64,000 nucleotides of DNA from Bacilli bacterium (GTDB lineage Bacteria; Bacillota_I; Bacilli_A; RF39; UBA660), in assembly GCA_900768815.1 (NCBI GenBank), contig CAAGEE010000002.1, positions 4,252-68,251 of the forward strand, in the 5' to 3' direction. The position numbers were made by a program, and so were the translations under genes. This document shows, piece by piece, positions 7,730 to 52,308 of this stretch. The stretch's first letter is position 1, and each line of letters starts with the position of its first letter. The notes below the pieces were generated by a model that was not told the DNA's origin, did no database searches, and saw only the letters and a program-made list of their open reading frames with translations.

Positions 7730-7761
7730 TTTGGCTTCTTTTGTTTAAGGGGAAATATTTT

Positions 7762-8913
7762 ATGAGGTTGAATATAGATTATAGTGATCTTAAAAGACAA
7801 ATTATTGAATTGGCTGAGAGTTTAAAACATACTCCTGATAAAGATGACTTTTATAGAAAGTACATGACTTTTGGAGCACTTAACTACGTATATAGTTTGA
7901 GAAAAAGAAGCAATGTATTTTTATCAGAGAAAATCGAAGAGTTTGGAATAAAGTGTTATGATGAAGGCTGTCTTAAGGCTAAAGATGATTTCTTGAGTAA
8001 TAAGTTATATCACAGAGAAGTTTTGGGAAAGAGTTTTGATGAGAATAGTGAGGTAATGGTAGAGATTGCTCTTAGTAAATATTTTAGAAGTTTAAGGAGA
8101 AAACATTTTTCTAGGATTAAGGATGGAGAACGTTCTGAAATATTAGAATCATTTTTTAAGGATTCTTTTCCTGAGGGAAGGGATATTTTAGAAAAATTAC
8201 TTGAAGATGGACATTTATATAGATTTGATTCAATAGCTGCGATGGGAGTTCCTGCTTTTACAATATTTAATACAGAAGAGAAGCTTGCTAATGTATTTTT
8301 ATATAACAAACCAAGGTCTGTCGCAACCCTAGCATCTTTGATCCATGAGATGGGGCATGTTCACGATTATTTGGATGTTACTAGCACTTTTTCTAATACT
8401 GAGATAATTGATTATTCGGTAAATAGTATTTTTGTAGAGACGTTATCTTGCTATTATAATCAGCTTTTCCTGGAATATTTATTAAAAAATGGAATTAGAG
8501 AAGAAGAAACTATATTTTCTTTTAAAGAGTTTTTTACTAGCTTATTTTCTTATTTAGAATCAGGTCTACTACTTACATTACTATCTGAAAATGAATATAG
8601 GAAAGTATGTGATGGGAATGTTTTGAAGGAAGTGGTAGTTAAAAGTCTTTTAGATAAAAAAGTAATAGAAGAGGGAGAGTATTCATTTTCTTCACTTTCT
8701 TCTATGATGAGTGGAATAGATGAGAATCGTTATAGTTATGGAATTTTAATTTCTAATATGATTATTAATGGAGAAATTTCTTTAAATGATTTTATGAGTA
8801 TTAGAGGGAAAAAGTTTAATAAAGAAAATTTAGAAGGTATTGGTTTTGATGCTGATAAAGCAAAAAAGTCTTTGGTTAAGACAATGACTAGGACAATGAT
8901 TAAAAAAATATAA
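7762..8913 (+). CDS. cytoplasmic HExxH zinc metallopeptidase-like protein, M3-like motif
   Basis: LIHEMGHVHD, with Glu residues 15 (TEIID) and 26 (VETL) positions after the second motif His, the latter at M3-like distance. No signal peptide. At 383 aa it is much shorter than PepF. ATG 7762 follows an AAGGGG RBS. Confidence 0.5.
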   Translation: MRLNIDYSDLKRQIIELAESLKHTPDKDDFYRKYMTFGALNYVYSLRKRSNVFLSEKIEEFGIKCYDEGCLKAKDDFLSNKLYHREVLGKSFDENSEVMVEIALSKYFRSLRRKHFSRIKDGERSEILESFFKDSFPEGRDILEKLLEDGHLYRFDSIAAMGVPAFTIFNTEEKLANVFLYNKPRSVATLASLIHEMGHVHDYLDVTSTFSNTEIIDYSVNSIFVETLSCYYNQLFLEYLLKNGIREEETIFSFKEFFTSLFSYLESGLLLTLLSENEYRKVCDGNVLKEVVVKSLLDKKVIEEGEYSFSSLSSMMSGIDENRYSYGILISNMIINGEISLNDFMSIRGKKFNKENLEGIGFDADKAKKSLVKTMTRTMIKKI

Positions 8914-12366: not shown

Positions 12367-13224
12367 ATGGTGAAAAATATGGAAGAAAAAGAAATCAAAA
12401 ATAAAAAAATTAGTAGTAGCCAAGATAATAAATCTTTAAAGAAAAATAATAGTGTTGATATTAATGATGAAAATACTGATAGTAAGGTAGATAAGAATAT
12501 TGATGTTAAGGATCAGAAAAGGAAGGTCACTAAGAAAGAAAAAAAGTCTTTAAAGAAAGAGGATAAGAAGACAAAGACGAATGGGAAGAAAGACAAAAAA
12601 AAGCTTACTCAGGCTGATATAAAAAAATATTCTTCAACGCAGATTGATCATGTTATTTTAAAGATTAAGGCTAATGAACGTAAATATACAATTATTTCTG
12701 TATGTATTATCTTGTTTGCATTTTTAGTTTGTTCTTATATTATTTTTTCAGCAATACAAGAGTCTAATGTAAAGCCAACTTTTAAAGTTGGTAAACTTTA
12801 TTATGAGTTTAATGAAACTAAAAATGGTTTGGGAGATGTAATTAGTTTAGTAGATGTTTCTCCAATTAGTGATAAAGATGGCATGAAGACAAAGACTTAT
12901 ACTATTAAGTTATATAATTCTGGTAAAGAAAAGCAAAAGTTTAAGATATTTATTTCTGATGATAAGGAAATGATAGCATTTGATGAGTGTGGTGACAAAG
13001 TAGTAGAAAGAGACTTTATAAAATATAGTATTAATGATAAAAAGGCTTTGGCGCTTGATAATGATGAAGAAGTTAGTATTATATCTAGTACATTGGCACC
13101 TAAAGAAAGTAGAATTTATACAATTAGATGTTGGGTTAGTGATACTTACACTAAGAGTGATGTTGTGCATTATCATGGTACTATTTCAGTTAGATTAGAT
13201 AATAGTGAAAATAAAGCTAAGTGA
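12367..13224 (+). CDS. membrane-anchored protein with a Lys-rich N-terminus, unknown function
   Basis: About 100 aa of K/D/E low complexity, one TM (YTIISVCIILFAFLVCSYIIFSAI), then a ~160-aa beta-rich external domain. No family recognised. Confidence 0.55.
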   Translation: MVKNMEEKEIKNKKISSSQDNKSLKKNNSVDINDENTDSKVDKNIDVKDQKRKVTKKEKKSLKKEDKKTKTNGKKDKKKLTQADIKKYSSTQIDHVILKIKANERKYTIISVCIILFAFLVCSYIIFSAIQESNVKPTFKVGKLYYEFNETKNGLGDVISLVDVSPISDKDGMKTKTYTIKLYNSGKEKQKFKIFISDDKEMIAFDECGDKVVERDFIKYSINDKKALALDNDEEVSIISSTLAPKESRIYTIRCWVSDTYTKSDVVHYHGTISVRLDNSENKAK

Positions 13225-13999: not shown

Positions 14000-14085
14000 A
14001 TATATTCACCTATAGTAATGTATGTTAAAGTGTCAATTTAGTGAAAATGTATTGTATAAAATTTTCTTAATATGGTACAATAATA

Positions 14086-14269
14086 GTGTCAGATGGATGC
14101 GACACCGACACTTTTAAAACCGACTAAAGTGACGATAAGGGAGTTCTGATCTGTTATTGGTGTTGAAGGCCTGTATTTATATGGGAATCCTAAAAATAAC
14201 GTACGAACACCCACCTGGACGAGAGAACAGGTTTTATCGTTTGTTAGGACGCTCTGGTCTGACTTTTTT
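14086..14269 (+). ncRNA. candidate 6S RNA (SsrS/BsrA-like) or other structured sRNA
   Basis: Own promoter (TTGTAT 14052-57, TGgTACAAT 14073-81). About 180 nt, visibly more GC-rich than its flanks. The 5' end GTCAGATGGATGCG pairs with the 3' end CGCTCTGGTCTGAC and is followed by T6. The next gene has a separate promoter (TTGTTC-17-TGgTATAAT, 14271-99). Lies between aspS and tcdA(yrvM), where I recall B. subtilis bsrA being. Confidence 0.45.
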
Positions 14270-14320
14270 ATTGTTCAAAAACACTTTTTGTGGTATAATA
14301 AGCCATGCGAGGTGATTAGA

Positions 14321-15130
14321 ATGTTGATTTTACCAATTATTAATAGAAATAGAATACTAAACGTTAGTATTAGTTATAAAGAGGCTGCTAAGATTAGAGT
14401 GGATGTAGAGCTAGAAGATACTTTACCCAGTGATATTATAGTTAGTGGTAAAAGTTTTAATTCATCAGCTTTTTATGATTCAAAAGATAAAACTAATATA
14501 GTTGAATTTATTAGAAATAATTCTATTTTGTATAGAAGAAGTGTTTTAGTTACTACCAAGAGTAGACGTGATAGCTGTAACTATGATGTATATGATGTCG
14601 GCGTTGCACCTAGAAAAATTAGTATGGCAACAGATATGCTCTATATTAGAGCTATTTTAGATTTAGAGAAAGAGTTACCTGGAGTTGTTAGAGGTAAGTA
14701 TATATCTTTTGAAGAGTTAGGTTTTGGAGAAGTCTTTTCAGATGATAAGATTTCTAGACTTAAGAGGATTGTTACTTCTAATCCTACTAGTAGGTGGGAG
14801 ATGTTATTTAAAGAAAACAATCTTATGGATATGATAGAGACGCTAGCGTTTCTAAAAAGTTTTGATTGTATAGTTGTTAGTGAAGCATCAGTACCAGAAG
14901 AGACTATGCAACAAGTTTTAGCAAGTTTTGAAAAAATCTGTTCTAGAGATACTAAGAGTTTGAATAAGTATTATAGTATGGCAGAGGAAAATAGAGATTT
15001 ATATGCAAAGATGACTTATGTTAATAAATTGGTTTATGGTAGGCCACTTGATTTAATACAGTCTAAATCACAAAAAAATAGACAATTAATAAAAAAAGAA
15101 GAGAATTGGGAGAGTAAAAAGGGTGCATAA
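14321..15130 (+). CDS. hypothetical protein
   Basis: ATG 14321 follows a GAGGTGA RBS. 269 aa, soluble, no motif recognised. Its 3' end overlaps the tcdA start by 8 nt. Confidence 0.6.
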   Translation: MLILPIINRNRILNVSISYKEAAKIRVDVELEDTLPSDIIVSGKSFNSSAFYDSKDKTNIVEFIRNNSILYRRSVLVTTKSRRDSCNYDVYDVGVAPRKISMATDMLYIRAILDLEKELPGVVRGKYISFEELGFGEVFSDDKISRLKRIVTSNPTSRWEMLFKENNLMDMIETLAFLKSFDCIVVSEASVPEETMQQVLASFEKICSRDTKSLNKYYSMAEENRDLYAKMTYVNKLVYGRPLDLIQSKSQKNRQLIKKEENWESKKGA

Positions 15131-21855: not shown

Positions 21856-21896
21856 AAAAATAAGAATTATCAAATTAAAGATAATTCTTATTTTTT
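21855..21896. terminator. bidirectional terminator
   Basis: AATAAGAATTATC / GATAATTCTTATT 13-bp stem flanked by A- and T-runs, between convergent genes. Confidence 0.75.
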
Positions 21897-22217
21897 GGGT
21901 TTTTCTAATAATGACCAGTATTGTTTATATAGTTTTTGAACACTGTTTTCTAAGAAATAATAATAGAATATATATGGTATAAAAAGTACCATTGTAGCAA
22001 GAAATGGAATGTATAGTATTATATTGTAAACGTTGGCAAATAAGAAAAAAAATATAGTTATACTACCAACAAAGACTGTTACGATTAAGTGAACTAATCT
22101 TTCGTGTTGCCAAAAGTTTATTTGTGTTAGATGTTTTGCAGGCAGGTCTTTTTCAATCTTTTCTTCTTTTAGAACTTTATCGATGTATTCTAAATAATCT
22201 TTTAAATTTTCTTTCAT
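21888..22217 (-). CDS. small two-TM membrane protein, unknown function
   Basis: 109 aa. Charged N-terminus followed by two hydrophobic spans. Sits downstream of gmk where rpoZ is usually found. Confidence 0.55.
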   Translation of the reverse strand: MKENLKDYLEYIDKVLKEEKIEKDLPAKHLTQINFWQHERLVHLIVTVFVGSITIFFFLFANVYNIILYIPFLATMVLFIPYIFYYYFLENSVQKLYKQYWSLLEKPKK

Positions 22218-22237
22218 ATAAACTCCTTAATATCTTT

Positions 22238-22915
22238 TTAAATCTTTTCTGTTATAGTTGAATTATCATAATCTTCTTCCATTAATAATTCGTGGATTTC
22301 TTCTTCTTTGGTATCTAGATAAACTTCTTCAATACGATCAACACGACATTTTTCAGCCTTGATTATAGCTTCAACTTTATCGACGGTATCTTCTAAGGTG
22401 TCATTTACAACTACGTAGTTATATTTTGTTACATCATTTATTTCTTTATAGGTTTTATGGAAACGTTCTAGTAATTTATCATTGCTATCAGTGTTTCTTT
22501 TTTTTAGTCTTTTTACAAGAGTTTTTATAGATGGTGGCATGATAAAGATAAAGATTGATTCTGGAAGAAGTTTTTTTATGTTACTAGCTCCTTCTATTTC
22601 TATTTCTAAAATTACATCAATACCTTGGTCTAGTTTTTCTTTAATTTGACCTTTTGGAGTACCATAGTAGTTTCCAACGTAGTTGGTGTATTCTAGAAAG
22701 TAACCTTCTTCTATTTTTTTTTCAAACTCTTCTTTTGAAACAAAGTTATAAGTAGTACCTGGTATATCATTTGTTCTTATTGGTCTTGAAGTAGTTGATA
22801 CAGACAACCATAAGTTTTTCTTTCTTTTTAAAAGTTCTGCAATAACTGTTCCTTTTCCTCCTCCTGATGGGGAAGATATTACAATGACTTGACCTGTTTT
22901 TTTACTTTTTATCAT
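22238..22915 (-). CDS. gmk: guanylate kinase
   Basis: P-loop SPSGGGKGT, TTSRPIR, YYGT motifs. About 20 aa of acidic C-terminal extension. Confidence 0.92.
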   Translation of the reverse strand: MIKSKKTGQVIVISSPSGGGKGTVIAELLKRKKNLWLSVSTTSRPIRTNDIPGTTYNFVSKEEFEKKIEEGYFLEYTNYVGNYYGTPKGQIKEKLDQGIDVILEIEIEGASNIKKLLPESIFIFIMPPSIKTLVKRLKKRNTDSNDKLLERFHKTYKEINDVTKYNYVVVNDTLEDTVDKVEAIIKAEKCRVDRIEEVYLDTKEEEIHELLMEEDYDNSTITEKI

Positions 22916-22917
22916 AT

Positions 22918-24066
22918 TTATTCTCCCTTTATTATATGTTGATATTCTTGTTTAATTAGTTCGGACTGTTTTTCGTTAGGTAGACTTAGAGCATATATTT
23001 TAGTGGTTTCTATTTCAAAGGCTAACATAGGATCTTTTTCTTTAGTTATTTTACTTATTAGTGGGATTGTTAGATCTTTTTTGATAGAGTTTAAGTATTT
23101 TCTACCTGTTTCATTTAAACCTAAGATTCTAATATAGGTTATGTTACTAAATTGTTCTTTTTCTTCTTTAGTAAAATTACATAAAATATGAAGTAACATT
23201 CTAGATAGTTTGTTGTAAGTATATCTTTTACTTTTAAGACGAGTTATTAAATCATCATAAGAAGTTGCGTTTAGGATTTCTTTTTTTAATAATTTATCAA
23301 TTCCTTCGTCGACTGTATTATAAATAGATAAGTCTTTTTCAGTGATTATTTTATATTTTAAGAGTGGATAATAGTCTTCTATAAAATGAAAAGCTGTTAA
23401 ATACTTTTTTGTATATTCTGGAACTTGATTATCAATATTTTTATTTTCTTTTAGAGCTAGTCTTATAGAAGTAGCACTTGATATTTTTTCTTCAATATTT
23501 TTACCATGATAATCATTTGTTCTTTTTATAGTTTCTGGTATTATTTTATAGTTGTTTTTCAGAATTGTTTTGATGTAACTTACTCCTAAAAGATCGTTTG
23601 GAGTGGTAATTATTTCATTAGTTAAATCTTTGATTGCTAGTGAGATTGCGGTTGGATAATTTTTACCGAATTTAGAATAAATTTTTACTAATTTATCAAA
23701 ATCGGGATTATTATTTTGAGTTTTAGCAATTAGTTTTAAAGTTTCTATGTTGTTTGATTCACTACCGAAAATAACTTTTGTAACATGAAGTTGCTCAAGG
23801 AGTGTTATAGCACCATAACTAAAATAGTCAGCACTTTGAGTTGCAAATGGGAATGGTAGTTCTATTACTAAGTCGGCACCAGACTTTAGAGCTATCTCGG
23901 TTCTTTTCCATTTATCGATAATTGCAACATCGCCACGTTCTGTGAAGTTACCAGTCATTACTAAAATAATAGGGGAATCTTTATACTTTTCTTTAATCTT
24001 TTTTAGGTGATAAAGATGTCCATTATGAAAGGGATTATACTCTGCAATAACACCAATACTTTCCAT
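22918..24066 (-). CDS. tmcAL: tRNA(Met) cytidine acetate ligase (YlbM/TmcAL nucleotidyltransferase)
   Basis: AEYNPFHNGHLYHL (HxGH). About 380 aa. ATG at 24066 follows GAGGTAAAAAT; the track start 24120 adds 18 unlikely residues. Confidence 0.85.
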   Translation of the reverse strand: MESIGVIAEYNPFHNGHLYHLKKIKEKYKDSPIILVMTGNFTERGDVAIIDKWKRTEIALKSGADLVIELPFPFATQSADYFSYGAITLLEQLHVTKVIFGSESNNIETLKLIAKTQNNNPDFDKLVKIYSKFGKNYPTAISLAIKDLTNEIITTPNDLLGVSYIKTILKNNYKIIPETIKRTNDYHGKNIEEKISSATSIRLALKENKNIDNQVPEYTKKYLTAFHFIEDYYPLLKYKIITEKDLSIYNTVDEGIDKLLKKEILNATSYDDLITRLKSKRYTYNKLSRMLLHILCNFTKEEKEQFSNITYIRILGLNETGRKYLNSIKKDLTIPLISKITKEKDPMLAFEIETTKIYALSLPNEKQSELIKQEYQHIIKGE

Positions 24067-24218
24067 ATTTTTACCTCGTTTCTTGGTATTTAGTTTAACA
24101 CAATTTTTAGTAAAATACAATTTTTGAAGAAGTTCTTTTATTTACATATTTGTTAGTATGAGTTATAATTTATTTGAATATGATTAAGTAGAAATTTATC
24201 TTTAGAATGGGTGATATA

Positions 24219-25295
24219 ATGAGAGCGGTTGTTGTTGCTGGGGGTACTGGGGGACATATATATCCAGCTATTGCGATTATTAATAAAATTAAAATGATGG
24301 AACCGGATAGTTCGTTTTTATATATTGGAACAACAGATAGAATGGAAAAAGATATTATTCCAAAGCTTGGTATAGAATATGTTGGTATTGAAATGGCAGG
24401 TTTAAATAGAAAGAAGATATTTGATAATTTTAGAATTTTAGGTTTATATAAAAAAGCCGTTAATAGAGCAAGGGAAGCTATAAAAGAATTTAATCCTGAT
24501 ATAGTTATTGGAGTTGGAGGATATATAACGGCGCCAGTATTATATGCTGCTCATAAATTGAAATATAAAATAGTTATTCATGAACAAAATTCAATACCTG
24601 GTTTATCTAATAAGTTTTTAGCAAGATATGCTGATAAGATATTTGTATCTTTACCAGGCAGTGTTAAATATTTTAATAAAGATAAGACTGTTTATACGGG
24701 AAATCCTAGAAGTGAGGAAATTATTGATGCTAAGTTAGTTAGTAGAGAAAAGTATGGTTTTGTTAAAGATAAAAAATTAGTTATAATAGTTATGGGATCT
24801 TTAGGATCTGTTACAATGACTAGAAAAATACAAGAATTAATCCCTTGTTTTAATGATAAAAAATATCAAGTTTTAATTATTACAGGTAAGAATTATTATG
24901 ATAATTATAAAAATATAAAAGTTAATTCTAATGTTAAAATTTTACCTTTTTTGGATAATTTAATTGGGTTAATGAAAGATACTGATTTGATTGTTTCTAG
25001 AGCTGGAGCTTCAACTATAGCAGAAATTACCGCTATTGGGTTACCTGCTATACTTGTACCTTCTCCTTATGTTGCTCATAATCATCAGTATATGAATGCT
25101 AAAGAGTTGGAGAATAGTTCGGCTTGTTGCATTGTTAGTGAAGAGGAGTTTTCTAAGAATATATTAATCAAAAAGATTGATGAATTATTAGAAAATGATA
25201 AGTTGTATGAAAAGATGCATGAGGCTAGTAGAAAGCTTGGAGTTACTGATTCGGCAACTAGAATATACAGGGAAATTAAAAAGTTAGTAGGGTGA
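24219..25295 (+). CDS. murG: UDP-GlcNAc:lipid I GlcNAc transferase MurG
   Basis: AGGTGGHIYPA N-terminal motif, GT-B architecture, followed by murB. Confidence 0.95.
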   Translation: MRAVVVAGGTGGHIYPAIAIINKIKMMEPDSSFLYIGTTDRMEKDIIPKLGIEYVGIEMAGLNRKKIFDNFRILGLYKKAVNRAREAIKEFNPDIVIGVGGYITAPVLYAAHKLKYKIVIHEQNSIPGLSNKFLARYADKIFVSLPGSVKYFNKDKTVYTGNPRSEEIIDAKLVSREKYGFVKDKKLVIIVMGSLGSVTMTRKIQELIPCFNDKKYQVLIITGKNYYDNYKNIKVNSNVKILPFLDNLIGLMKDTDLIVSRAGASTIAEITAIGLPAILVPSPYVAHNHQYMNAKELENSSACCIVSEEEFSKNILIKKIDELLENDKLYEKMHEASRKLGVTDSATRIYREIKKLVG

Positions 25296-25301
25296 GATAC
25301 G

Positions 25302-26207
25302 ATGAATGTATTAGAGAAAATTATAAAGTCTGATTTAGGTAGAGTAGAGACAAATCCGTTTTTAAGTAAATATACGACTTATAAAGTCGGGGGTAAGGCT
25401 TTAGCAATTGTTTATCCTAAAAATACTAGTTGTTTAATTAATTTATTAAAGTTACTTAATGAAAATAATATTAAATATAAGATTATAGGAAATGGTTCTA
25501 ATTTACTTTTTAGTGATTCGTTGTTTGATGGTGTAATCATTAAATTATCTTCTTTTGATGGGGTACAGTTTTTTGGGAATAATAAAGTTAAAGTTGGAGC
25601 TGGTTTTTCTTTAATTAAGCTTTCTTTACTTGCTGCTAAAAAGGGACTTGCTGGATTAGAGTTTGCATCTGGAATACCTGGTACAGTAGGTGGAGCTATT
25701 TTCATGAATGCTGGTGCTTATAAGAGTGATATGGGTTATATTGTTCAAGAGGTTAAGGTACTTACGCCAGATTATAAAATTATTACACTTGAAAATAAAG
25801 AGTTGAATTTCCATTATCGTTCGTCTTTTTTACAAAAGCATCCAGAGTATATATGTTTAGAAGCAATTATTAAGTTACAACAAGGTGATAGAGAATTAAT
25901 TGAAGATGTTATAAAAGAAAGAAGAGAGAGAAGAATTAGTTCACAACCTTTAGAGTATCCATCAGCAGGCTCAGTATTTCGTAATCCAGAAGATGGTTTT
26001 GCAGGTAAGATGATAGAAGATTTGGGTTTAAAAGGATATAGAATTGGTGGGGCTATGGTTAGTGAGAAACATGCTAATTTTATTATTAATTATAATAATG
26101 CAACTAGTAGTGATATAAAGAATTTAATTGATTATGTACATGATCAGGTTTTAGAAAAATATAATGTTGATTTAAAAGTAGAACAAGAATTTGTAAACTG
26201 GGAGTAG
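25302..26207 (+). CDS. murB: UDP-N-acetylenolpyruvoylglucosamine reductase
   Basis: FAD-binding PCMH domain (IGNGSNLLF), GSVFRNP, C-terminal MurB domain. Confidence 0.95.
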   Translation: MNVLEKIIKSDLGRVETNPFLSKYTTYKVGGKALAIVYPKNTSCLINLLKLLNENNIKYKIIGNGSNLLFSDSLFDGVIIKLSSFDGVQFFGNNKVKVGAGFSLIKLSLLAAKKGLAGLEFASGIPGTVGGAIFMNAGAYKSDMGYIVQEVKVLTPDYKIITLENKELNFHYRSSFLQKHPEYICLEAIIKLQQGDRELIEDVIKERRERRISSQPLEYPSAGSVFRNPEDGFAGKMIEDLGLKGYRIGGAMVSEKHANFIINYNNATSSDIKNLIDYVHDQVLEKYNVDLKVEQEFVNWE

Positions 26208-26212
26208 ATTAA

Positions 26213-26902
26213 ATGAAGAAAAAGGTAGTCAAAAAGAAAAAACTTAAAATTATACCATTTTTTATAGCACTTTTGATTATAGCTTTAGTTTCTTTTAGTG
26301 TTATACAAATATTACAAGCTAAAATAAAGAATATAATTATAACTAATGGTGACTATTTAAAAGATGATTATATTATAGATTTAGCAGGGATTAGAGATTA
26401 TCCAAGTTTTTATTTGACTAATACTTTAAAAATAAAGAAGAATTTATTGAAGTCTCCTTATATTAGAAACGTTAAGATAAAGAGAGAATTTTATCATGTG
26501 TTAGAAATTGAAGTTGTTACTAATAGACCGTTATTTATTAATAGTGCTACTAATGAAGTGGTATTTGAAGATAAAAATACGGTTAAAGTAGATGATGAGA
26601 TTGATTTATTTAGAGTACCTAGACTTATGAATTATGTTCCGGATGATAAGTATAGTACTTTTATTGATAAGATGGCTAAAGTTGATAAGGGAATACTTGG
26701 AAAGATTTCAGACATCGAATATGTACCTAATGATTATGATAAAGATAGATTTCTTTTATATATGGATGATGGTAATATGGTTTATTTAACTTTAACGAAG
26801 TTTAAACAGATAGAATATTATAATGATGTTTTAAGTCAGTTAGAGGGAAGGAAAGGTATTTTATATTTAGATAGTGGTAATCATTTTCAAATTAAGGAGT
26901 AA
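26213..26902 (+). CDS. divIB: cell division protein DivIB/FtsQ
   Basis: K-rich N-terminus, one TM, POTRA-like region (IKNIIITNGDYL). Position directly after murB. Confidence 0.85.
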   Translation: MKKKVVKKKKLKIIPFFIALLIIALVSFSVIQILQAKIKNIIITNGDYLKDDYIIDLAGIRDYPSFYLTNTLKIKKNLLKSPYIRNVKIKREFYHVLEIEVVTNRPLFINSATNEVVFEDKNTVKVDDEIDLFRVPRLMNYVPDDKYSTFIDKMAKVDKGILGKISDIEYVPNDYDKDRFLLYMDDGNMVYLTLTKFKQIEYYNDVLSQLEGRKGILYLDSGNHFQIKE

Positions 26903-26905
26903 GGT

Positions 26906-28258
26906 ATGGAGAAAGAGAAAATTAAAAGTATAGTTAAGTATATTTGTATTTTTAGTTATTCTTTTCTTTGCCTTCTTTTTATTTATACTTTATCTAGAGG
27001 GGATTTGTATGTTAATTATGGCTTTAGTTACGCGATTAGTAGAGGAGAGGTTCCTTATGTTGATTTTAACTTAGTAATACTTCCATTTGCTCCTTTTCTT
27101 TATGCAATATTTTTATTGTTTTCAAAATCAATTATTTGTTATTATTTAGGACAGGCATTATTATTAACTATTTTTTCTTATTTTGTTTTTAAATTATTAG
27201 ATAAGAAGGCCTTTTGTTACTTTGCAGTATTATTAATGCCTTTTCCAATAGCGATGGCCTCAGTTATATTTCCGGGATATAATTTTTTATTGTTACTACT
27301 TACAGTAATTGTTATTTATTTGGAGAAAGAAAAGAAGTCTGACTATTTAATTGGTGTTTTACTAGGGTGCCTTTTTCTTACGAAACAAACTGTTGGAGGA
27401 CTTTTATGTCTTGCTTCGATATATTATTTATTTAAAGATTGGAAGAAGGTTTTAAAAAGAGTTTTAGGATTTTTTATTCCAGTTTTAGTTTGCTTTTTGT
27501 ATTTGGTTTTAAGTGGTAGCTTAGCTTCTTGCATTGATTTATGTTTCTTAGGACTTTTTGATTTTGGACATAGTAATTTTTATTATGATAAGTTTTATTT
27601 GATATATTTAGTTATAGCTTTTTTTGTAGTAGTTTATAGAATATTTAAAAGACCAAAAGATATAGATAATTATTATTTATTATTATTTATGAGTTGTACT
27701 TTTCCTTTGATTGATTATTATCATGTTTCGCTATTTTTAGCATTGTTTTTTTTAGTAATTTTTTCGGATTTAAAGATAAATGTTAATTTGGAAAAACAGG
27801 CAATTGTTTTTATAATAGCAATTGGTTTTATTTGGGGGATTGTAGAAACTAAGTGTATAGGAAGTTTAAATATAGTTAATTATAAGAATTTGGAGTTATC
27901 TATTTTTTCTAGTAAATATATAAATAATGTAGAGCAGCTTGATAATTATCTTGATAATAAAAATATGGAAGTTGTTTATTTTTTAAGGGGATCGGAGAAT
28001 TATTTTTATAAGATTAAGAGTAATTCTTTGATTACTTATTTTGATTTACCTAACTATGGTAATTATGGTTATAATGGTACAGAAAAGATAATTAATAAAC
28101 TTAGTGAGTTAGATGATGTATTGATTGTTATTGATAAATCGTGTTACTTGGATGATAATGAAGCACAACAATATATAAAAGAAGCTGTTACTTATATTAT
28201 TGAAAATTGTAAATTTGTGAAGAAAATTGGCAATTACGAAGTTTACTTTAAGGAGTAG
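26906..28258 (+). CDS. polytopic membrane protein, GT-C-like glycosyltransferase candidate (paralogue 1)
   Basis: 450 aa. Multiple TM spans plus a soluble C-terminal domain. Shares NYGFSYA..GEVPYVDFN, YLEKEKKSDYLIG...FLTKQTVG, DLCFLGLFDF and NYGYNGT blocks with the next two ORFs. Confidence 0.6.
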   Translation: MEKEKIKSIVKYICIFSYSFLCLLFIYTLSRGDLYVNYGFSYAISRGEVPYVDFNLVILPFAPFLYAIFLLFSKSIICYYLGQALLLTIFSYFVFKLLDKKAFCYFAVLLMPFPIAMASVIFPGYNFLLLLLTVIVIYLEKEKKSDYLIGVLLGCLFLTKQTVGGLLCLASIYYLFKDWKKVLKRVLGFFIPVLVCFLYLVLSGSLASCIDLCFLGLFDFGHSNFYYDKFYLIYLVIAFFVVVYRIFKRPKDIDNYYLLLFMSCTFPLIDYYHVSLFLALFFLVIFSDLKINVNLEKQAIVFIIAIGFIWGIVETKCIGSLNIVNYKNLELSIFSSKYINNVEQLDNYLDNKNMEVVYFLRGSENYFYKIKSNSLITYFDLPNYGNYGYNGTEKIINKLSELDDVLIVIDKSCYLDDNEAQQYIKEAVTYIIENCKFVKKIGNYEVYFKE

Positions 28259-28264
28259 TTGGAG

Positions 28265-29635
28265 ATGAAGATAAAAAATAATAAGATATTTAAATTCATA
28301 AGAGAAAATATTAAGTATGTAGTTGTTTTTTTTATAGTGCTTGTTGCGTTAACTTTTTTTAGTAATTTGAATTGTTATGATGCGGCTTGGAATTATGGCT
28401 TTAGTTATGCTTTTTCTAAAGGAGAAGTTCCATTTAAGGATTTTAATATGATTACACCGGGGCTATATAATTTTGTTATGTCTTTAGGTTTACATATATC
28501 ACATAATAATTTGTTGTTTTTAATTGAACAGTCATTATTAATTACTTTAACGTTTTTTATAGTTTATAAGATGTATGGGAAGAAGAGTTGGTTATTTTTA
28601 TTTTTTATGGTTTTTCCTAGTTTTTATGCATTTACGCCAACATATAATTTCTTTTTAATGTTTTTAACAATACTTCTTATTTATTTGGAAAAAGAAGAAG
28701 CAAATGACTATTTAATTGGTGTTGTGTTATCATTATGTATTTTAACTAAACATACAGTGGGAATATTTTTGGTTATTCCAAGTTTTATATTTTATTTTAA
28801 GGATAAGAAGAAATTATTAAAAAGATTTATTGGTTGTTTAATACCAGGAATTATTTATGTAGTCTATTTACTTTTTATTGGAGCATTGAAATACTTCTTC
28901 GATTTATGTGTACTTGGTCTTTTTGATTTTGCTAGCAAGAATGGGGAGTTTGTTTTAATATATGTAGCTTTAACTTTTATACTTTTAGTTTTAAATGTTT
29001 TATATGTTATTTTTAATAGAAAAGATATAATGGGTTATTATATACTTTGTTTCTTTTCAGTTATGATACCAATATTTTCTTTTTATCATTTTAGTGTTTA
29101 TTTAGCAATTTGTTCTTTAATGTTACTTTCTATATTGAAAAAGAAAGATATTTCAGATAATTATCTTGGTTTTTTAGGAATAGTTTTGACGTTAATTACT
29201 TTTAGTTTTAATTTAACTTTTGTTAGAGGAGAATATTTCTTTCATGTACATAATTTTGACTATTTATATTCTAACAAAGAGAGTAGAGATAATTTTAAGA
29301 GATTGAATGACCTTTATTTAAAATACAGAGATGGTTCTAGTGTTAATATACTTTCTAGTAAGGGAGTATTAATTAAGATTATCAATGAAGAAAAACTAGA
29401 TTATTTTATGGTTCCTCTTAATGGCAATTTTGGTTATAATGGTACTTTGAAGATGATTGATAAAGTTAAAGATAACGATAAAAGCTATTATATTATTGAT
29501 ATGAATGAATATAAAAGAACTAAAGTATATGGTGGACAGTTTGCTTTAGAAATATGTGACTATATTATAAAAAATAGTAAAATAATAGAAGAAAATGAAG
29601 ACTATAATGTTTATTATTATGAGGGTGTGGTATGA
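28265..29635 (+). CDS. polytopic membrane protein, GT-C-like glycosyltransferase candidate (paralogue 2)
   Basis: Same architecture and motif blocks (WNYGFSYAFSKGEVPFKDFN, YLEKEEANDYLIG...LTKHTVG, DLCVLGLFDF, NFGYNGT). ATG 28265 is 9 nt after AAGGAG; the track start is TTG 28259. Confidence 0.6.
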   Translation: MKIKNNKIFKFIRENIKYVVVFFIVLVALTFFSNLNCYDAAWNYGFSYAFSKGEVPFKDFNMITPGLYNFVMSLGLHISHNNLLFLIEQSLLITLTFFIVYKMYGKKSWLFLFFMVFPSFYAFTPTYNFFLMFLTILLIYLEKEEANDYLIGVVLSLCILTKHTVGIFLVIPSFIFYFKDKKKLLKRFIGCLIPGIIYVVYLLFIGALKYFFDLCVLGLFDFASKNGEFVLIYVALTFILLVLNVLYVIFNRKDIMGYYILCFFSVMIPIFSFYHFSVYLAICSLMLLSILKKKDISDNYLGFLGIVLTLITFSFNLTFVRGEYFFHVHNFDYLYSNKESRDNFKRLNDLYLKYRDGSSVNILSSKGVLIKIINEEKLDYFMVPLNGNFGYNGTLKMIDKVKDNDKSYYIIDMNEYKRTKVYGGQFALEICDYIIKNSKIIEENEDYNVYYYEGVV

Positions 29636-30957
29636 TAAAAAAATATTATAAAAAAATAATTTTAGGAGTATTTTTATTCTTTGCTTTTTTGATTTGGAAT
29701 CTTATTTTATATCCGGTTAATTTAGATGAGGTTTGGAATTATGGATTTAGTCATAATATATATTCTGGACTTATTCCATATAAAGATTTTAATATGGTAA
29801 TTACTCCTTTTTATCCATTTTTAATGTCTCTAGGATTTCATTTGTTTGGCTCTAGTATGTTAGTATTTCATATAGAACAAGCACTTATTTCAGTTGTGTT
29901 TTGTTTTATATTGTTTACATTATTAGGAAAAAAGATTTGGTTTATTATTCCACTTTTATTTGTACCAATTAACGTATCTTTTCCAAGTTATAATATATTT
30001 TTATTTTATTTATTGGTTTTGTTAGTATACTTAGAAAAAAATAAAAGTTCTGATTATGTAATTGGGTTTATATTGGGACTTGCAGTTTTGACAAAACAGA
30101 GCGTTGGAGTTTGTTTATTATTACCAAGTTTATATTATATTAAAAGTTTTGATAAAATTAAGAAGAGAATTATAGGATTTATAATACCAATAAGTATATT
30201 TATTTTATATTTAGTATTTACAAGTAGTTTATATTCATTTTTAGATTTGTGTTTGCTTGGACTTTTTGATTTTGCTTCTGGTAATGGAGGAAAGTTTAAT
30301 GTTTATTTAATTTTCTTTATAATAATGGTTGGAATTACAATTTACTTTATATATAAAGATAGAAAAAATATAGTTAATTATTATATACTTTTCTTTTTTA
30401 GTATTATGATACCGTTATTTGATACTTATCATTTTGCGGTAGCATTTTTAGCTTTTTTACTCTTAATATTACTTAAGATGCAAAAAGATATTTTGAGGCC
30501 AGAATTATTTGGAATTAGTATTATTATTTTTGCATCAATACTTATGGGAAATTTTAGATTTAGAGGGCAGATAGTTTATCCTAATAATATTAGACATTTT
30601 GAATATAGGTTTATTGATTATGATTCTTTGATTTTTACTAATAAAGTTAATGAATTTATAAATGAAAATAGAGATAAAGAGATTGTTTTTCTTAATTCAA
30701 ATGGGTATTATTTTAGAATTATTAATGATATGAAGATATCTTATATTGATTTAATTAATATTGGTAATTTTGGTTATGATGGGAGTAATAAATTACTTAG
30801 AGAGATTAAGAAGAAAAAGCATGCAATATTTTTAGTGGATAGAAGTGAACTTGCTTTAGTTAAACAGACTGATAAACAGGTTTTAAACTATGTTTTAGAT
30901 AATGGAAAAAGGATTGGAAAGATAGATTTTTATGAGATTTATATTTTAAATAGTTAA
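29632..30957 (+). CDS. polytopic membrane protein, GT-C-like glycosyltransferase candidate (paralogue 3)
   Basis: LDEVWNYGFS...IPYKDFN, YLEKNKSSDYVIG...LTKQSVG, DLCLLGLFDF, NFGYDGS. ATGA overlap with paralogue 2. Confidence 0.6.
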   Translation: MIKKYYKKIILGVFLFFAFLIWNLILYPVNLDEVWNYGFSHNIYSGLIPYKDFNMVITPFYPFLMSLGFHLFGSSMLVFHIEQALISVVFCFILFTLLGKKIWFIIPLLFVPINVSFPSYNIFLFYLLVLLVYLEKNKSSDYVIGFILGLAVLTKQSVGVCLLLPSLYYIKSFDKIKKRIIGFIIPISIFILYLVFTSSLYSFLDLCLLGLFDFASGNGGKFNVYLIFFIIMVGITIYFIYKDRKNIVNYYILFFFSIMIPLFDTYHFAVAFLAFLLLILLKMQKDILRPELFGISIIIFASILMGNFRFRGQIVYPNNIRHFEYRFIDYDSLIFTNKVNEFINENRDKEIVFLNSNGYYFRIINDMKISYIDLINIGNFGYDGSNKLLREIKKKKHAIFLVDRSELALVKQTDKQVLNYVLDNGKRIGKIDFYEIYILNS

Positions 30958-31029
30958 GAATTTCAGAATTTGTATTTTACAAATCTTTTTTTTATAGTAT
31001 AATTAAATTTAAGAATAGGAGATGCTAGG

Positions 31030-32268
31030 ATGAGTGATATTTATACTTCAATTGATTTAGGTACTAATAGTATTAAAGTTGTTGTATGTGAAAAACATAA
31101 TAATGATTTTCATGTATTGGCTGCTGTTAGTAGTAAGTCTCAAGGTATTAAGAATGGACAAATTGAAGATACTAAGTTAGCTGTTACTAGTGTTAGAAAT
31201 GCTGTTAAGAAGGTTAATGCAATGCTTGGTATTAAGATTACTAAAGTACTTGCATGTATTCCTCCTACGGAATGCAGAATGGATATTGTTGTTGGTTCTG
31301 TTGATGTTATTGATTATGAGAAAATAACTGGTGAAGATGTTAGAGGTGTCTTAAAAGATGCTTTAGTGGGGCATATAGATGAGGAATTTGAGATTATTAC
31401 GGCTTCTCCTATTAGTTTTACAGTAGATGATAAAGAAAACATTAAGGATCCTAAGGGAATGTCTGGAAAATCACTTGAGGCTAAAGTGGTTGTTAGTACT
31501 TTACCTAAGGAACCATTATATAGAATATTACAAGTTTTAAAATTAGCAGGATTAGAAACTATTGATATGGCTTATAGTTCTACAGGAGATTATTATACTA
31601 TTGCTAGTGAGAGGACTAGTGAGGTAGTTGGTGCTATTATTGATATTGGAGAGAGAAGTACTAATGTTTCTGTATTTAATAAGGGAATACAAATTAAAAA
31701 TGATGTTATTCCTATTGGTAGTTTTAATGTGGATCAAGATATTTCATATATTTTTAAATTAAGATTACCAGATAGTCGTAAATTAAAAGAAACATTTGCG
31801 GTTGCTTCAGCAAATTATGCTTCTAGTAATGATGTTATGGAATGCTTAACTATGGCAGATGAAAATAAAGAAATATCTCAAGTTGGAGCTTCTAAAGTTG
31901 TACAAGCTAGAGTGGAAGAAATATTAAAACTTGCTAAAATATCAATAAAAAACTTAACAAATAGAGAAATACGTTATATAATTGTAACAGGTGGATTGAG
32001 TGAGTTAGCTGGTTTTCAGTATTTACTTGAAGATATTTTTGGAACTAGAGCTAAAGTTTGCAATATACCGGTTATGGGATTAAGACATAATAAATATAGT
32101 AGTGTTTTTGGGGTTATAAAGTATTTTGATGATAAACTTTTACTTAGAGGTAAAAGATGTAATATGATTGGAGAAAATGATAGAGAAATTTTAGTATCTA
32201 CTGGACAAAAGACTACTATTAACGATAATATAGTAAGTAGAGTGTTTGGACATTTTTTTGATAATTAA
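31030..32268 (+). CDS. ftsA: cell division protein FtsA
   Basis: Actin-like ATPase ([21 protein letters not shown]). Directly upstream of ftsZ. Confidence 0.95.
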
Positions 32269-32279
32269 GGAGGTCTAGG

Positions 32280-33398
32280 ATGATAGGCGGATTAGAAATG
32301 GATATGGTAACAACTATAAAGGTTATTGGAATAGGTGGCGGTGGCGGAAACGCTATCAACAGAATGGTTGAAACTGGTGTTAAAGGTGTTGAATTTATTG
32401 CTGCTAATACAGATAAACAAGCTTTGAATCAGTCTAAAGCAGATGTTAAAATTCAATTAGGAACGGCCTTAACTGATGGAAAAGGTGCTGGTGCTAATCC
32501 AGCTATAGGTAAAGAGGCGGCTATTGAATCTAAGAAAGAAATAGAGGAAGCTTTAACTGGTGCTGATATGATATTCGTTACTTGTGGTATGGGTGGAGGA
32601 ACTGGTACTGGAGCTGCTCCTGTTGTTGCTGAAATTGCACAAAGCCTTGGAGCATTAACTGTTGCTATTGTAACTAAACCTTTCTCATTTGAGGGTCCAA
32701 GAAGAATGAAACAAGCAGTAGCAGGTATTGAAGATTTAAAGAAACATGTGGATACTTTGATTATTATTCCTAATGATCGTTTAAGAGAAATTATTGATAG
32801 ATCAACTCCTATGTGTGAGGCGTTTAAAGAAGTAGATAATGTTTTACGTAGAGGTGTTCAGTCTATTTCAGATTTGATTGCTGTAGTTGGACTTATTAAC
32901 TTGGATTTTGCTGATGTAAAAGCAGTTATGGAAAAGTCTGGTCAAGCAATTATTGGTATTGGTATTGGTATGGGTGAGGATAGAGCAATAGATGCGGCTA
33001 AGCAAGCCGTTTCATCACCATTACTTGAAACTTCAATAGAAGGTGCTACTGATGCTATTATTAATATTACAGGTGGCGTTAATTTAACATTGTTTGAAGC
33101 TGAACAAGCAGCTGAAGTAGTAAGAGCTGCTGCTAATACTGATATTAATACGATATTTGGTTCAGTAATTAATGAGAATTTATCTGATGAAGTTATTGTT
33201 ACAGTTATTGCTACTGGTTTTGATAAAAATAAAAAAGCAGCTACTAATACTGCACAAACTCAAAATGAACAACCAGTATTTAGTAATGCACAACCTACTA
33301 GAAGAAGTAAAGAACCAGAAATTTTACAAACTAGTGATGATGATTCCGATAGTGGAGATTTTGATATACCAGCATTCTTAAGAGATAGAAATTATTAG
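32280..33398 (+). CDS. ftsZ: cell division protein FtsZ
   Basis: Tubulin signature [18 protein letters not shown]-terminal DIPAFLR peptide. AGGAGG RBS. Confidence 0.98.
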
Positions 33399-33417
33399 AG
33401 ACATGGGTCTCTTTTTT
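33397..33417 (+). terminator. intrinsic terminator after ftsZ
   Basis: AGAGAC-atgg-GTCTCT hairpin followed by TTTTT. Confidence 0.75.
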
Positions 33418-45747: not shown

Positions 45748-45849
45748 GAGATCAATAATTTTATTGGTCTTTTTTTCTTTTGCTTTACATATTCTTTATA
45801 TTGTGGTATACTTATGGAACTTTTGTGTACAGAGGGGAGAAATATAAAT

Positions 45850-46317
45850 ATGTTAGATTACGAAAGAGAAGATTCAGTAGACAGAATAATTTTTGATTAT
45901 ATAAATCAAGCTTTTCCTGTTACTTTTGGACCTAATTATAGAGGACCTAGAAATGTTACGTTTGGTAAAAATAAAGAGATGAAGGATTTAGCTTATAAAT
46001 TAAGAAGAAATGGAATACAGTCAGAAGAAGTATTAAAACTTTTGCTTAGTGATAGGCCATTTGGAGAGATAAGTGATGTTACTTATGTTGATTTTATTTA
46101 TCGATATATTAATTTAGTGGTACCAGGTAGAGATGAGACTAGTGAAAGTGAACAAGTTGATTTTCGTGATTTGTACTTTGAAAAAGTAAATGAGATTGTT
46201 TCTAATGGATATGGAATGGATGTTGCTTTTAAATATGTCGTTAGAGGAGAGATTCCAATAAAATCAATAGTAATAGTTAATCCAAAACAATATGTAAAGA
46301 CAAATAAAAAGAGCTAA
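45850..46317 (+). CDS. hypothetical protein
   Basis: ATG 45850 follows a GAGGGGAG RBS. 155 aa, soluble, no motif recognised. Confidence 0.55.
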   Translation: MLDYEREDSVDRIIFDYINQAFPVTFGPNYRGPRNVTFGKNKEMKDLAYKLRRNGIQSEEVLKLLLSDRPFGEISDVTYVDFIYRYINLVVPGRDETSESEQVDFRDLYFEKVNEIVSNGYGMDVAFKYVVRGEIPIKSIVIVNPKQYVKTNKKS

Positions 46318-48669: not shown

Positions 48670-49233
48670 GTGTTAAGAAATAAAAATGGTTTTACTTTAG
48701 TCGAATTACTGGCAACTGTAGTTATTTTAGGTATTATTATGATTGTTGCAGTTCCTAATGTTATGGGTATTTTAACTAGAAATAGGTCTAATACTTATTT
48801 GGAAGATGCTAAAAAGTTATCTACTTTGGCTGAATATCAAATTAGATCTGGTAGTAATGCTGTACAAAAACCAGCAACTGGTCAATGTATTGTAATGACT
48901 TTATCATATTTGGATAATGCTGAGTTTGAAGATGCTCCTAATGGTGGAGAGTATTTAAAGAATGTCTCTTTTGTTGTCGTTAAAAAAGAAGGAAATGAAC
49001 TTAAATATTATGTACAATTACTTGAAAACTATAAAAATACTTATAGAGGTGTAAAGTTGATTGAGACTTCTAAGTTGACTGAAAATGGTGCTGTTAATAA
49101 TTATGTTGTTAATGCTAAGAAGGCTGATGTTGAGAGTGTTACTGGATTAGAAAAGGATAATTTTTTAACTTTTGCTCAAAAATTTAATAGTAGTTTTGCT
49201 TGTAATTCAGTTAGTTCTGTTTATTCAAAATAA
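48670..49233 (+). CDS. prepilin-type (type IV pilin/pseudopilin-like) protein
   Basis: Class III signal NKNG|FTLVELL with Glu at +5 and a hydrophobic alpha1-N helix. GTG start after a GGTAGGTGA RBS. Confidence 0.8.
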   Translation: MLRNKNGFTLVELLATVVILGIIMIVAVPNVMGILTRNRSNTYLEDAKKLSTLAEYQIRSGSNAVQKPATGQCIVMTLSYLDNAEFEDAPNGGEYLKNVSFVVVKKEGNELKYYVQLLENYKNTYRGVKLIETSKLTENGAVNNYVVNAKKADVESVTGLEKDNFLTFAQKFNSSFACNSVSSVYSK

Positions 49234-52239: not shown

Positions 52240-52308
52240 AGTATCACCTCATAAAAAATATATGAAATAAGATTTTAAATATGAGACAAACTAGTAATGG
52301 TGATTATA

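Follow-up and report, generated by a model that had tools for sequence, protein, structure and literature searches.

The DNA analysed here, called the window throughout, is a stretch of 64,000 nucleotides (contig CAAGEE010000002.1, positions 4,252 to 68,251 of the forward strand, assembly GCA_900768815.1) from a Bacilli bacterium that GTDB places in RF39 (UBA660). Between the division genes divIB (ftsQ) and ftsA it carries a tandem array of three genes encoding polytopic membrane proteins, referred to below as paralogues 1, 2 and 3, which are very probably GT-C glycosyltransferases. Enzymes of this clan are recognised by a polytopic domain of 7-13 transmembrane (TM) helices and by an active site located in extracytoplasmic loops (PMC11127046, PMC8035078). 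The enzyme class is thus a familiar one and the enzymology is probably conventional; what is new is an unnamed family with a novel external domain, found as arrays of 1-5 copies within the division operon.

Gene order, packing and paralogy

The array follows murG, murB and divIB and precedes ftsA and ftsZ (Table 1). The three open reading frames (ORFs) that a preliminary description of this sequence had located between divIB and ftsA are indeed present, both anchor genes being identified by Pfam, and the packing it had pointed to is observed as well: an AAGGAG ribosome-binding site (RBS) at the end of divIB, a start of paralogue 2 within 7 nt of the end of gene 1, and an ATGA overlap of 4 nt (29632-29635) between genes 2 and 3. 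An in-frame TTG at 28259 provides an alternative start for paralogue 2, but the ATG at 28265 is favoured because identical 456-residue proteins exist in public data. No ORF of 80 residues or more overlaps the three genes on either strand. From this tight packing, co-transcription of the array with divIB is plausible. Conversely, the terminator-like hairpin that had been described after the third gene did not withstand analysis: its folding is marginal (Table 1), 38 of 200 shuffled sequences fold equally well, and it is not called by the terminator scan. It is at best a leaky terminator, and was rejected as evidence for an operon boundary. Promoter-like sites are as numerous across the region as shuffled sequences predict, and the site upstream of ftsA is suggestive only.

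The three proteins are mutually 35-38% identical over nearly their full length (BLAST E 1e-60 to 1e-76) and share one architecture, about 320 membrane-embedded residues comprising 11 TM helices, followed by a soluble tail of ~130 residues. Four motif blocks, which the preliminary description had aligned by eye, prove to be invariant alignment columns: D..(W)NYGFS...G.(V/I)P(Y/F).DFN in the first external loop, YLEK...DY.IG...LTK..VG, DLC.LGLFDF, and GN(Y/F)GY(N/D)G..K near the C-terminus. At the DNA level, the alignment of the paralogues survives only in these motif stretches, in register and with 60-77% identity; the duplication is therefore old and has undergone no recent homogenisation, and recent duplication or gene conversion was rejected on the same grounds. 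All three paralogues are kept by purifying selection, with dN/dS values against the closest species of 0.177, 0.152 and 0.171 for paralogues 1, 2 and 3, the neighbouring genes yielding 0.145 (murG), 0.115 (murB), 0.073 (divIB), 0.098 (ftsA) and 0.031 (ftsZ). Together with the orthologues that each subtype possesses in many species (see below), these values (0.15-0.18) and the low mutual identity bear out the earlier view of an old and maintained paralogy.

Table 1. Coordinates of the array, of its flanking features, and of other genes discussed in the text (window positions, unless preceded by the number of a related locus)
Feature	Location	Strand	Basis or remark
murG	24207..25295	+	ORF; sequence and same position in related loci; upstream in same gene string
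murB	25302..26207	+	ORF; sequence and conserved synteny
divIB/ftsQ, 5' anchor of the slot	26213..26902	+	Pfam POTRA_1 2.6e-10, FtsQ_DivIB_C 2.3e-3
AAGGAG RBS of paralogue 1	26894..26899	+	Overlaps last divIB codons; ATG 26906 is 6 nt on
Paralogue 1, subtype B, 450 residues	26906..28258	+	PMT_2 4e-4; AlphaFold2 and Foldseek, GT-C
AAGGAG RBS of paralogue 2	28250..28255	+	Within the end of paralogue 1; ATG 28265 is 9 nt on
Paralogue 2, subtype D, 456 residues	28265..29635	+	36% identical to paralogue 1 (E ~1e-63), motif residues all kept
Paralogue 3, subtype A, 441 residues	29632..30957	+	PMT_2 8.5e-4; start overlaps paralogue 2 stop (ATGA)
Weak A+T-rich hairpin, then T8	30965..30993 (hairpin 30965-30986)	+	-4.4 kcal/mol, z = -0.78
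Promoter-like site TTTACA-16-TATAAT 5' of ftsA	30976..31003	+	11/12 consensus matches
ftsA, 3' anchor of the slot	31030..32268	+	Pfam FtsA 2.7e-18, SHS2_FTSA 6e-15
ftsZ	32280..33398	+	ORF; orthologues 74-99% identical
Terminator 3' of ftsZ	33397-33412	+	Terminator scan; first + strand terminator called downstream of the array
Class B penicillin-binding protein	52297-54348
Amine-oxidase modules	L022:12010-16395, L023:10800-13768, L028:13228-16259
Second polytopic family	L002:12103-13506, L009:12106-13512, L021:10701-12116, L040:1437-2849, L044:1450-2880, L073:8899-10311, L045:6463-7911
Second polytopic family, more distant members	L022:14977-16395, L023:12341-13768

Fold, topology and conserved residues

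Pfam analysis of the window proteins returns PMT_2 (PF13231) as the sole match of paralogue 1 (21.1 bits) and as the top match of paralogue 3 (20.0 bits; E-values in Table 1), while paralogue 2 has no Pfam match. When 37 diverse family members were scanned one by one, counting as a match an E-value of 0.01 or better, PMT_2 was detected in 16 of them (best 3e-7), the match spanning TM2-TM7 (protein residues 61-199). GT87 (PF09594, PimE-like) matches six of the 37 weakly (best 2.1e-5) and none of the three window proteins. A few relatives in the databases have a precomputed PF13231 match. Neither YfhO nor FTSW_RODA_SPOVE matches the window proteins or the 37 relatives, and a scan of the three paralogues and DivIB against NCBIfam gave no matches.

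The fold is documented by an AlphaFold2 model of paralogue 1, obtained from the 37-sequence alignment (pLDDT 91.7, pTM 0.91, all residues at 50 or above). A Foldseek search of the PDB with this model returned GT-C proteins for all 12 best matches, these being AglB, ArnT, ALG9, ALG3, PimE, AftB, a chain of the glycosylphosphatidylinositol transamidase complex (9ub7_B) and EmbA, with EmbB and EmbC lower in the list. The best E-value (5.8e-4) belongs to the archaeal oligosaccharyltransferase AglB, and the best global structural match is ArnT (PDB 5EZM/5F15), with a TM-score of 0.57-0.58 normalised on the query and 0.50 on the target. Matches outside the GT-C clan have a probability of 0.05 or less and no competing transporter fold appears; RodA, FtsW, WaaL and other B-class GT-C proteins are not among the listed matches. 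The C-terminal domain of ~130 residues, modelled alone (pLDDT 89.7), has no assignable fold relative in the PDB according to Foldseek (best E 0.07, TM-score 0.36 or less). These results, together with the PMT_2 matches, uphold the GT-C-like reading proposed in the preliminary description. By its sequence, the family appears as a separate, unnamed one inside the GT-C clan, lying outside all the sequence definitions tested (PMT_2 threshold, GT87, ArnT, YfhO and NCBIfam).

The AlphaFold2 helices and the positive-inside rule, applied over 193 full-length copies, assign 11 TM helices with the N-terminus inside and the C-terminus outside, the frequency of Lys and Arg per residue being 0.34 in the predicted cytoplasmic loops versus 0.045 in the external ones. 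Most of the invariant residues sit in external loops or in the C-terminal domain. In the first external loop (EL1, residues 26-75 in paralogue 1 numbering, used hereafter), D33, just after TM1, and D53 are each Asp or Glu in 191 of the 193 copies, and N37 and N55 are further conserved residues of the outer face. In GT-C enzymes, the catalytic base usually proposed is an Asp just behind TM1 (PMC11127046), and those of Gram-positive bacteria typically carry a DxD motif, sometimes modified, in an external loop (PMC8035078); the EL1 motif here, D-x3-N ... D-F-N, is a modified form and not a strict DxD. K160, Y125, G150 and F220 are kept in all 193 copies, and H273 in 192. Further conserved sites of the outer face are N126, T159, Y272 and the DLCxLGxFDF...N loop, and the C-terminal domain carries a conserved G-N-x-G-Y-x-G motif. 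K160, the single invariant external lysine, is a possible phosphate ligand.

Several of these results nevertheless count against the GT-C assignment, or limit its precision. The PMT_2 gathering threshold of 26.1 bits is not reached by any window protein, a profile search of all PDB sequences returned nothing even at an E-value of 10, and hhalign comparison of the family profile with E. coli ArnT (E 0.56, probability 0.1%) aligned nothing meaningful. The Foldseek E-values are modest, from 5.8e-4 to ~0.1, and the best TM-score of 0.57 indicates a common fold and not a close kinship. Finally, three invariant or near-invariant residues, E140, D146 and R185, are found at the predicted cytoplasmic ends of TM4, TM5 and TM7, unlike most of the other conserved residues, which are on the outer face or at TM ends. 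The standard GT-C mechanism assigns them no role; they may form a cytoplasmic interaction site or a lipid-entry feature.

The family in related genomes

A word-indexed search identified 561 relatives among 8,000 candidates scored; among the matches listed, all come from metagenomes or metagenome-assembled genomes (MAGs), and the only name given is "hypothetical protein". An exhaustive hidden Markov model search of 1.84 billion cluster representatives (50% identity clusters) retrieved 1,582 clusters at E ≤1e-3, 1,085 at 1e-10 and 527 at 1e-30, nearly all of them 430-460 residues long. Cluster look-ups found the family unnamed in all sources, and the literature searches yielded no description of it, nor of any GT-C module lying between divIB/ftsQ and ftsA or present in RF39; its undescribed status, suspected from the outset, thus stands. 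The most distant members (P0269, P0265, P0257 and P0249) lie on contigs of 1.5-4.5 kb, uninformative for genomic context.

Using the family's own motifs, 75 loci (numbered with the prefix L) were retrieved from GTDB contigs, one genome per species, all of them from MAGs of uncultured gut or rumen Bacilli or "Tenericutes"; such a sample shows where the family is located and not which fraction of RF39 genomes carries it. The closest locus is that of "Mycoplasma sp. CAG:877", where paralogue 1 is 89% identical and FtsZ 99%. The genus CAG-877 ("Ca. Faecimonas") belongs to family CAG-611 of order RF39 according to GTDB (PMC8035907).

The family occupies the divIB-ftsA slot in all 53 loci in which both flanks are visible, with one full-length copy in 7 loci, two in 16, three in 14, four in 8 and five in 8. 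Fourteen further loci are cut at one side, and in 11 of them the family abuts the visible anchor gene. The strand is that of the division and cell wall (dcw) genes for 209 of 210 copies; successive copies are separated by a median of 3 nt and overlap at 50 of 135 junctions. Clustering of the 193 full-length copies yields at least six major subtypes, with 45-53% identity within and 31-38% between subtypes. Type A (61 of 193 copies), to which paralogue 3 belongs, is near-universal and usually the last before ftsA; type B (33 copies, including paralogue 1) is usually the first; type D (17 copies) includes paralogue 2; and the remaining copies are of types C, E, F and others. The order B-D-A of the window recurs in L001, L002 and L017, F-G-B-A-C is found in L010, L012 and L020, and A-C in many loci. 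Orthologues of each individual window paralogue occur in many species (45-89% identity), and the paralogues therefore pre-date the divergence of these species. The triplication stressed in the preliminary description is hence not special, as the slot holds a variable number of copies (1-5) of at least six subtypes in the related genomes surveyed. Likewise, the arrangement is a common one among related gut and rumen Bacilli (53 loci), without being an already characterised one.

The content of the array changes while its place does not. In L002 the third copy is just 45% identical to its counterpart, while murG, murB, ftsA and ftsZ are 90-95% identical; L005 and L011 contain three D-type copies; and decayed family fragments lie beside intact copies in the slot of L003, L007, L009 and L024, and indicate ongoing birth and death in the array. 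Its old ordered subtypes, its cassette-like turnover between close species and the presence of other GT-C-type genes in the slot recall the multi-GT-C glycan pathways of mycobacteria and the variable systems that decorate wall polysaccharides in Gram-positive bacteria; with its variable copy number as well, the array would behave, by analogy, like a glycan locus.

The slot was also believed to be normally empty before ftsA, and this was not the case: in B. subtilis, ylxW-ylxX-sbp are found there, in the operon murB-divIB-[...]-ftsA-ftsZ (PMC6827917). The slot therefore commonly carries accessory envelope or division genes. YlxW and YlxX, which we take to be DUF881 proteins, and Sbp, presumably a small basic protein, differ from the array products in that they are not polytopic glycosyltransferases, and no homology to the window proteins was seen. 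Other occupants exist among the related loci, such as a true PMT_2 protein (2.2e-9) in L039 and a DUF6056 polytopic protein (1e-91) in L073. In L022, L023 and L028, the slot contains a 513-524-residue FAD/NAD-binding protein resembling amine oxidases (Amino_oxidase 1.9e-16 for the L022 copy, the sole one scanned), with polytopic neighbours devoid of Pfam match on both sides in L022, downstream in L023 and upstream in L028. This module may be a sugar-modifying unit partnering membrane glycosyltransferases.

A second recurrent polytopic family, of ~470 residues, is observed in other species within the divIB-ftsA slot or adjoining a copy of the array family. It displays the motifs DYFWHIKAGE, NxHGGSSN, YDYGGYLIY and DGRADLY and has no Pfam match. 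No kinship with the array family is detectable (hhalign probability 1.3%). Its apparent shape is reminiscent of another uncharacterised GT-C-like enzyme. Overall, polytopic envelope genes of GT-C type tend to accumulate in the divIB-ftsA slot.

Most copies of the array family that lie elsewhere are type A singletons. Two stand beside ezrA (L072:4228-9320, EzrA 1.3e-100, and L068:4029-9263, the neighbour being assigned by similarity), two directly upstream of murG (L057:7896-9218 and L071:7965-9287), and four in unrelated contexts. The ezrA and murG neighbourhoods are a second and a third association of the family with division and wall genes.

As to the remainder of the window, Pfam annotation of 45 of its proteins identified, among the wall-related ones, a Mur ligase, a class B penicillin-binding protein (PBP), a sortase, a polysaccharide deacetylase, GH25, VanZ and FtsK. 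Three proteins on the + strand (48670-49233, 49337-50002 and 55465-57588, the last one 707 residues long) exhibit a prepilin N-terminal methylation motif (N_methyl, 1e-7 to 6e-9). Six ORFs of 109-390 residues have no Pfam match (7741-8913, 12367-13224, 14288-15130, 45814-46317 and 50979-51971 on the + strand, 21888-22217 on the - strand); the product of 12367-13224 has an N-terminus very rich in Lys, a single TM helix and a domain outside the membrane, and 50979-51971 is located just upstream of the class B PBP gene. A 6S/SsrS RNA gene (14084-14268, +; Rfam RF00013, full-length, 53.2 bits versus a gathering score of 46.4) precedes ORF 14288-15130. ARAGORN detected no tRNA gene in the whole 64 kb.

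With a GC content of 0.23-0.33, the window is A+T-rich. Each of its 2-kb bins has a positive GC skew (+0.045 to +0.49), which reaches at least +0.2 except in 22001-24000, and ~90% of the ORFs of 100 residues or more are on the + strand, so that genes are very strongly biased towards the leading strand; the window is part of one replichore arm, with no origin or terminus signal seen. The array has a GC content of 0.23-0.25, versus 0.24-0.33 elsewhere in the window, and a negative AT skew, both of which fit T-rich hydrophobic codons. A foreign origin of the array was rejected, as its GC skew is that of its surroundings and it is present throughout the related genomes surveyed.

Candidate functions and significance

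The reading that we favour, with moderate confidence, is that the paralogues are outward-facing GT-C enzymes moving polyprenyl-phosphate sugars onto an acceptor of the envelope; a glycopolymer or lipoglycan anchored to wall or membrane is the most probable one. The active site would lie outside the membrane, lined by EL1 (Asp33, Asn37, Asp53 and Asn55), Tyr125/Asn126, Lys160, the DLCxLGxFDF loop and His273, and would be capped by the family-specific external alpha/beta domain of ~130 residues. The sugar would be taken from a polyprenyl-phosphate-linked donor already flipped to the outer leaflet, and then passed to the acceptor. The subtypes, here B, D and A, probably differ in sugar, linkage or acceptor position, and the subtype set of a species would determine its surface glycan structure. 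Given its translational packing behind murG-murB-divIB, the array is probably made together with the wall and division machinery. The fold, the topology, the conservation of residues, the purifying selection, the synteny across the clade and the subtypes are results of the analysis, whereas we infer the donor class, the acceptor, the order of action, the co-transcription and the tie to division, the last one from gene position alone. The glycopolymer acceptor is favoured because RF39 bacteria are predicted to have peptidoglycan but none of the standard pathways for teichoic acids (PMC10868615), so that another glycopolymer could find a place in the envelope.

The working model most likely to apply to the window proteins, again by analogy, is provided by the multi-component GT-C systems of Gram-positive bacteria (YfhO/GtlB, GacL, Lactococcus Csd/Cfl), which are also Firmicute envelope enzymes with an external acidic motif. 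These enzymes possess 8-13 TM helices and transfer sugars from C55-P-linked donors to teichoic acids or wall polysaccharides outside the membrane, each together with a synthase (GT-A/GT2) and a flippase of the GtrA or Wzx type (PMC8035078). They differ from the array family in that no synthase or flippase was found near the latter and no YfhO match was obtained, and neither a dcw position nor arrays of 1-5 copies are described for them.

Other GT-C enzymes illustrate single aspects of the family. ArnT (GT83), the undecaprenyl-phosphate-L-Ara4N:lipid A transferase, is likewise polytopic with its N-terminus inside, and has an acidic residue in EL1 and a small C-terminal external domain; a polyprenyl-phosphate monosaccharide donor is presumed to be shared. 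The solved ArnT structure contains 13 TM helices and the E. coli protein has 550 residues, as compared with 11 helices and ~450 residues here, without detectable sequence similarity. Furthermore, the array family's C-terminal domain has no structural relative, its genes form tandem multi-paralogue arrays, and the present organism has neither lipid A nor, as far as found nearby, arn-type partner genes. PMT_2/GT39-type and GT87 (PimE-like) enzymes are the only curated families that detect the array family, and PimE is a structural match as well, but the window proteins are sub-threshold or unmatched and no NCBIfam model recognises them. The mycobacterial and corynebacterial GT-C sets (PimE, MptA/B/C, AftA-D and EmbA-C, acting on lipomannan, lipoarabinomannan and arabinogalactan) offer an analogy for coexisting subtypes: a genome contains several diverged paralogues, each of which is believed to form a single linkage at the outer face with a polyprenyl-phosphate sugar as donor, and PimE, AftB and EmbA/B/C are among the structural matches. 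They belong to another phylum, however, are much larger (Emb chains exceed 1000 residues) and have no sequence relation to the array family beyond the clan; to our knowledge, their genes are not in the division cluster.

Several observations fit the favoured glycopolymer reading less well. Pfam detects no GT2 polyprenyl-phosphate sugar synthase and no GtrA-type flippase among the 45 window proteins, and BLAST searches with E. coli ArnC, ArnE and ArnF found nothing in the window or in the 75 loci with their 8-kb flanks. The three-component layout of a GT-A synthase, a flippase and a GT-C enzyme is therefore not visible locally, and the donor pathway would be encoded elsewhere or be unconventional. 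The completeness of bactoprenol synthesis in these lineages has been questioned by one RF39 study (PMC7301438). Strict anchoring in the division cluster is atypical of variable surface-glycan loci, a hint that the link with septal wall synthesis may be more specific. All family members, besides, come from uncultured organisms.

Protein O-glycosylation is an unlikely alternative overall. The paralogues would then be PMT-like enzymes, or resemble streptococcal PgtC2/PgfM1, and would use polyprenyl-phosphate donors to modify proteins that are exported, for instance pilins, substrates of the sortase type, or components of the divisome and of wall synthesis. The best Pfam family, PMT_2, is a protein-mannosyltransferase family; it is also a broad one that includes ArnT-like lipid and glycan transferases, which lessens the weight of this match. 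Streptococcal GT-C enzymes glycosylate the Ser/Thr-rich tails of PBP1a, PrsA, PknB and FtsQ (PMC12041528), but these enzymes are of the YfhO type, which the window proteins and their 37 relatives do not match. Besides a sortase, the window encodes two of the pilin-like proteins, 49337-50002 and 55465-57588, with its only Ser/Thr-rich tracts (0.44 and 0.56 Ser+Thr in 25 residues), which makes them possible targets on the basis of composition. DivIB and the class B PBP, on the other hand, have no such tract (below 0.4 in any 25 consecutive residues), and DivIB was rejected as a streptococcal-style acceptor for want of a Ser/Thr-rich tail. The presence of 1-5 divergent paralogues per genome also suits the multi-step building of a glycan better.

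Distinctly unlikely is the modification of the head group of a membrane lipid or glycolipid, in the manner of ArnT and with no polymer involved, which would tune membrane charge or rigidity in a thin-walled relative of the Mollicutes. ArnT is the best global structural match, and both are compact enzymes with a small external domain; wall-less Mollicutes, moreover, rely on membrane glycolipids, and RF39 is related to them (PMC10868615). Several ordered divergent paralogues are nevertheless a poor fit to a single head-group modification. No sequence similarity to ArnT is detected, and no lipid-modification partner genes were found nearby.

Direct action on peptidoglycan or lipid II, by a non-canonical glycan polymerase or by a peptidoglycan-glycosylating or -attaching enzyme that would make up for the PBPs lost in this lineage, would explain the fixed divIB-ftsA position, conserved in 53 of 53 loci, but is considered very unlikely. 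The extra copies beside ezrA (L068 and L072) and directly upstream of murG (L057 and L071) are in its favour, as is the best Foldseek E-value, obtained with AglB, since oligosaccharyltransferases use lipid-linked oligosaccharide donors. The common ancestor of RFN20, RF39 and ML615J-28 is, in addition, predicted to have lost most PBPs (PMC10868615). Still, RodA, FtsW, WaaL and other B-class GT-C proteins are absent from the structural matches, and an array of 1-5 copies with subtype replacement and pseudogene fragments would be surprising for an essential polymerase. The window also encodes a class B PBP, a protein that normally pairs with a SEDS polymerase encoded elsewhere in the genome.

That the paralogues are catalytically inactive, GT-C-derived membrane scaffolds of the divisome, as their location between divIB and ftsA and their sub-threshold scores against curated GT-C profiles might suggest, is hardly credible, and was rejected: acidic and basic residues at canonical GT-C active-site positions, needless in a scaffold, are kept in 191-193 of 193 copies, under purifying selection like that of the neighbouring enzymes.

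A more far-reaching view, which we regard as quite unlikely, is that of a division-coupled system for assembling glycans outside the cytoplasm, with the array at its core and restricted to RF39 and related Bacilli of reduced genome. In lineages deprived of the standard teichoic-acid pathways and of most PBPs, its GT-C enzymes would build or attach at the septum an alternative glycopolymer, anchored to wall or membrane, and would possibly act on peptidoglycan or on the lipid-linked precursors of it. Such a system would explain both the lock-in between divIB and ftsA and the copies beside ezrA and murG, and, if it exists, the variable subtype content would give every species its own surface glycan.

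RF39 bacteria and their relatives are abundant, uncultured inhabitants of gut and rumen, standing between the walled Firmicutes and the wall-less Mollicutes. Their envelope is known just from gene inventories, from which peptidoglycan, a small number of PBPs and the absence of standard teichoic-acid synthesis are predicted. No candidate for the envelope-glycan chemistry missing from this picture is more obvious than the array family, which is large, unnamed, under purifying selection and fixed in place in the division and wall operon. To enzymologists it would bring a new entry in CAZy, a GT-C family that is compact and has a novel external domain; to cell biologists it offers a testable example of how glycan modification may be tied genetically to the divisome. 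The array points to an unstudied cell-surface sugar-adding step expressed with wall and division genes, and, if the subtypes set the glycan structure, it would be a marker of surface diversity, relevant to recognition by phages or by the immune system, in a common lineage of the human gut.

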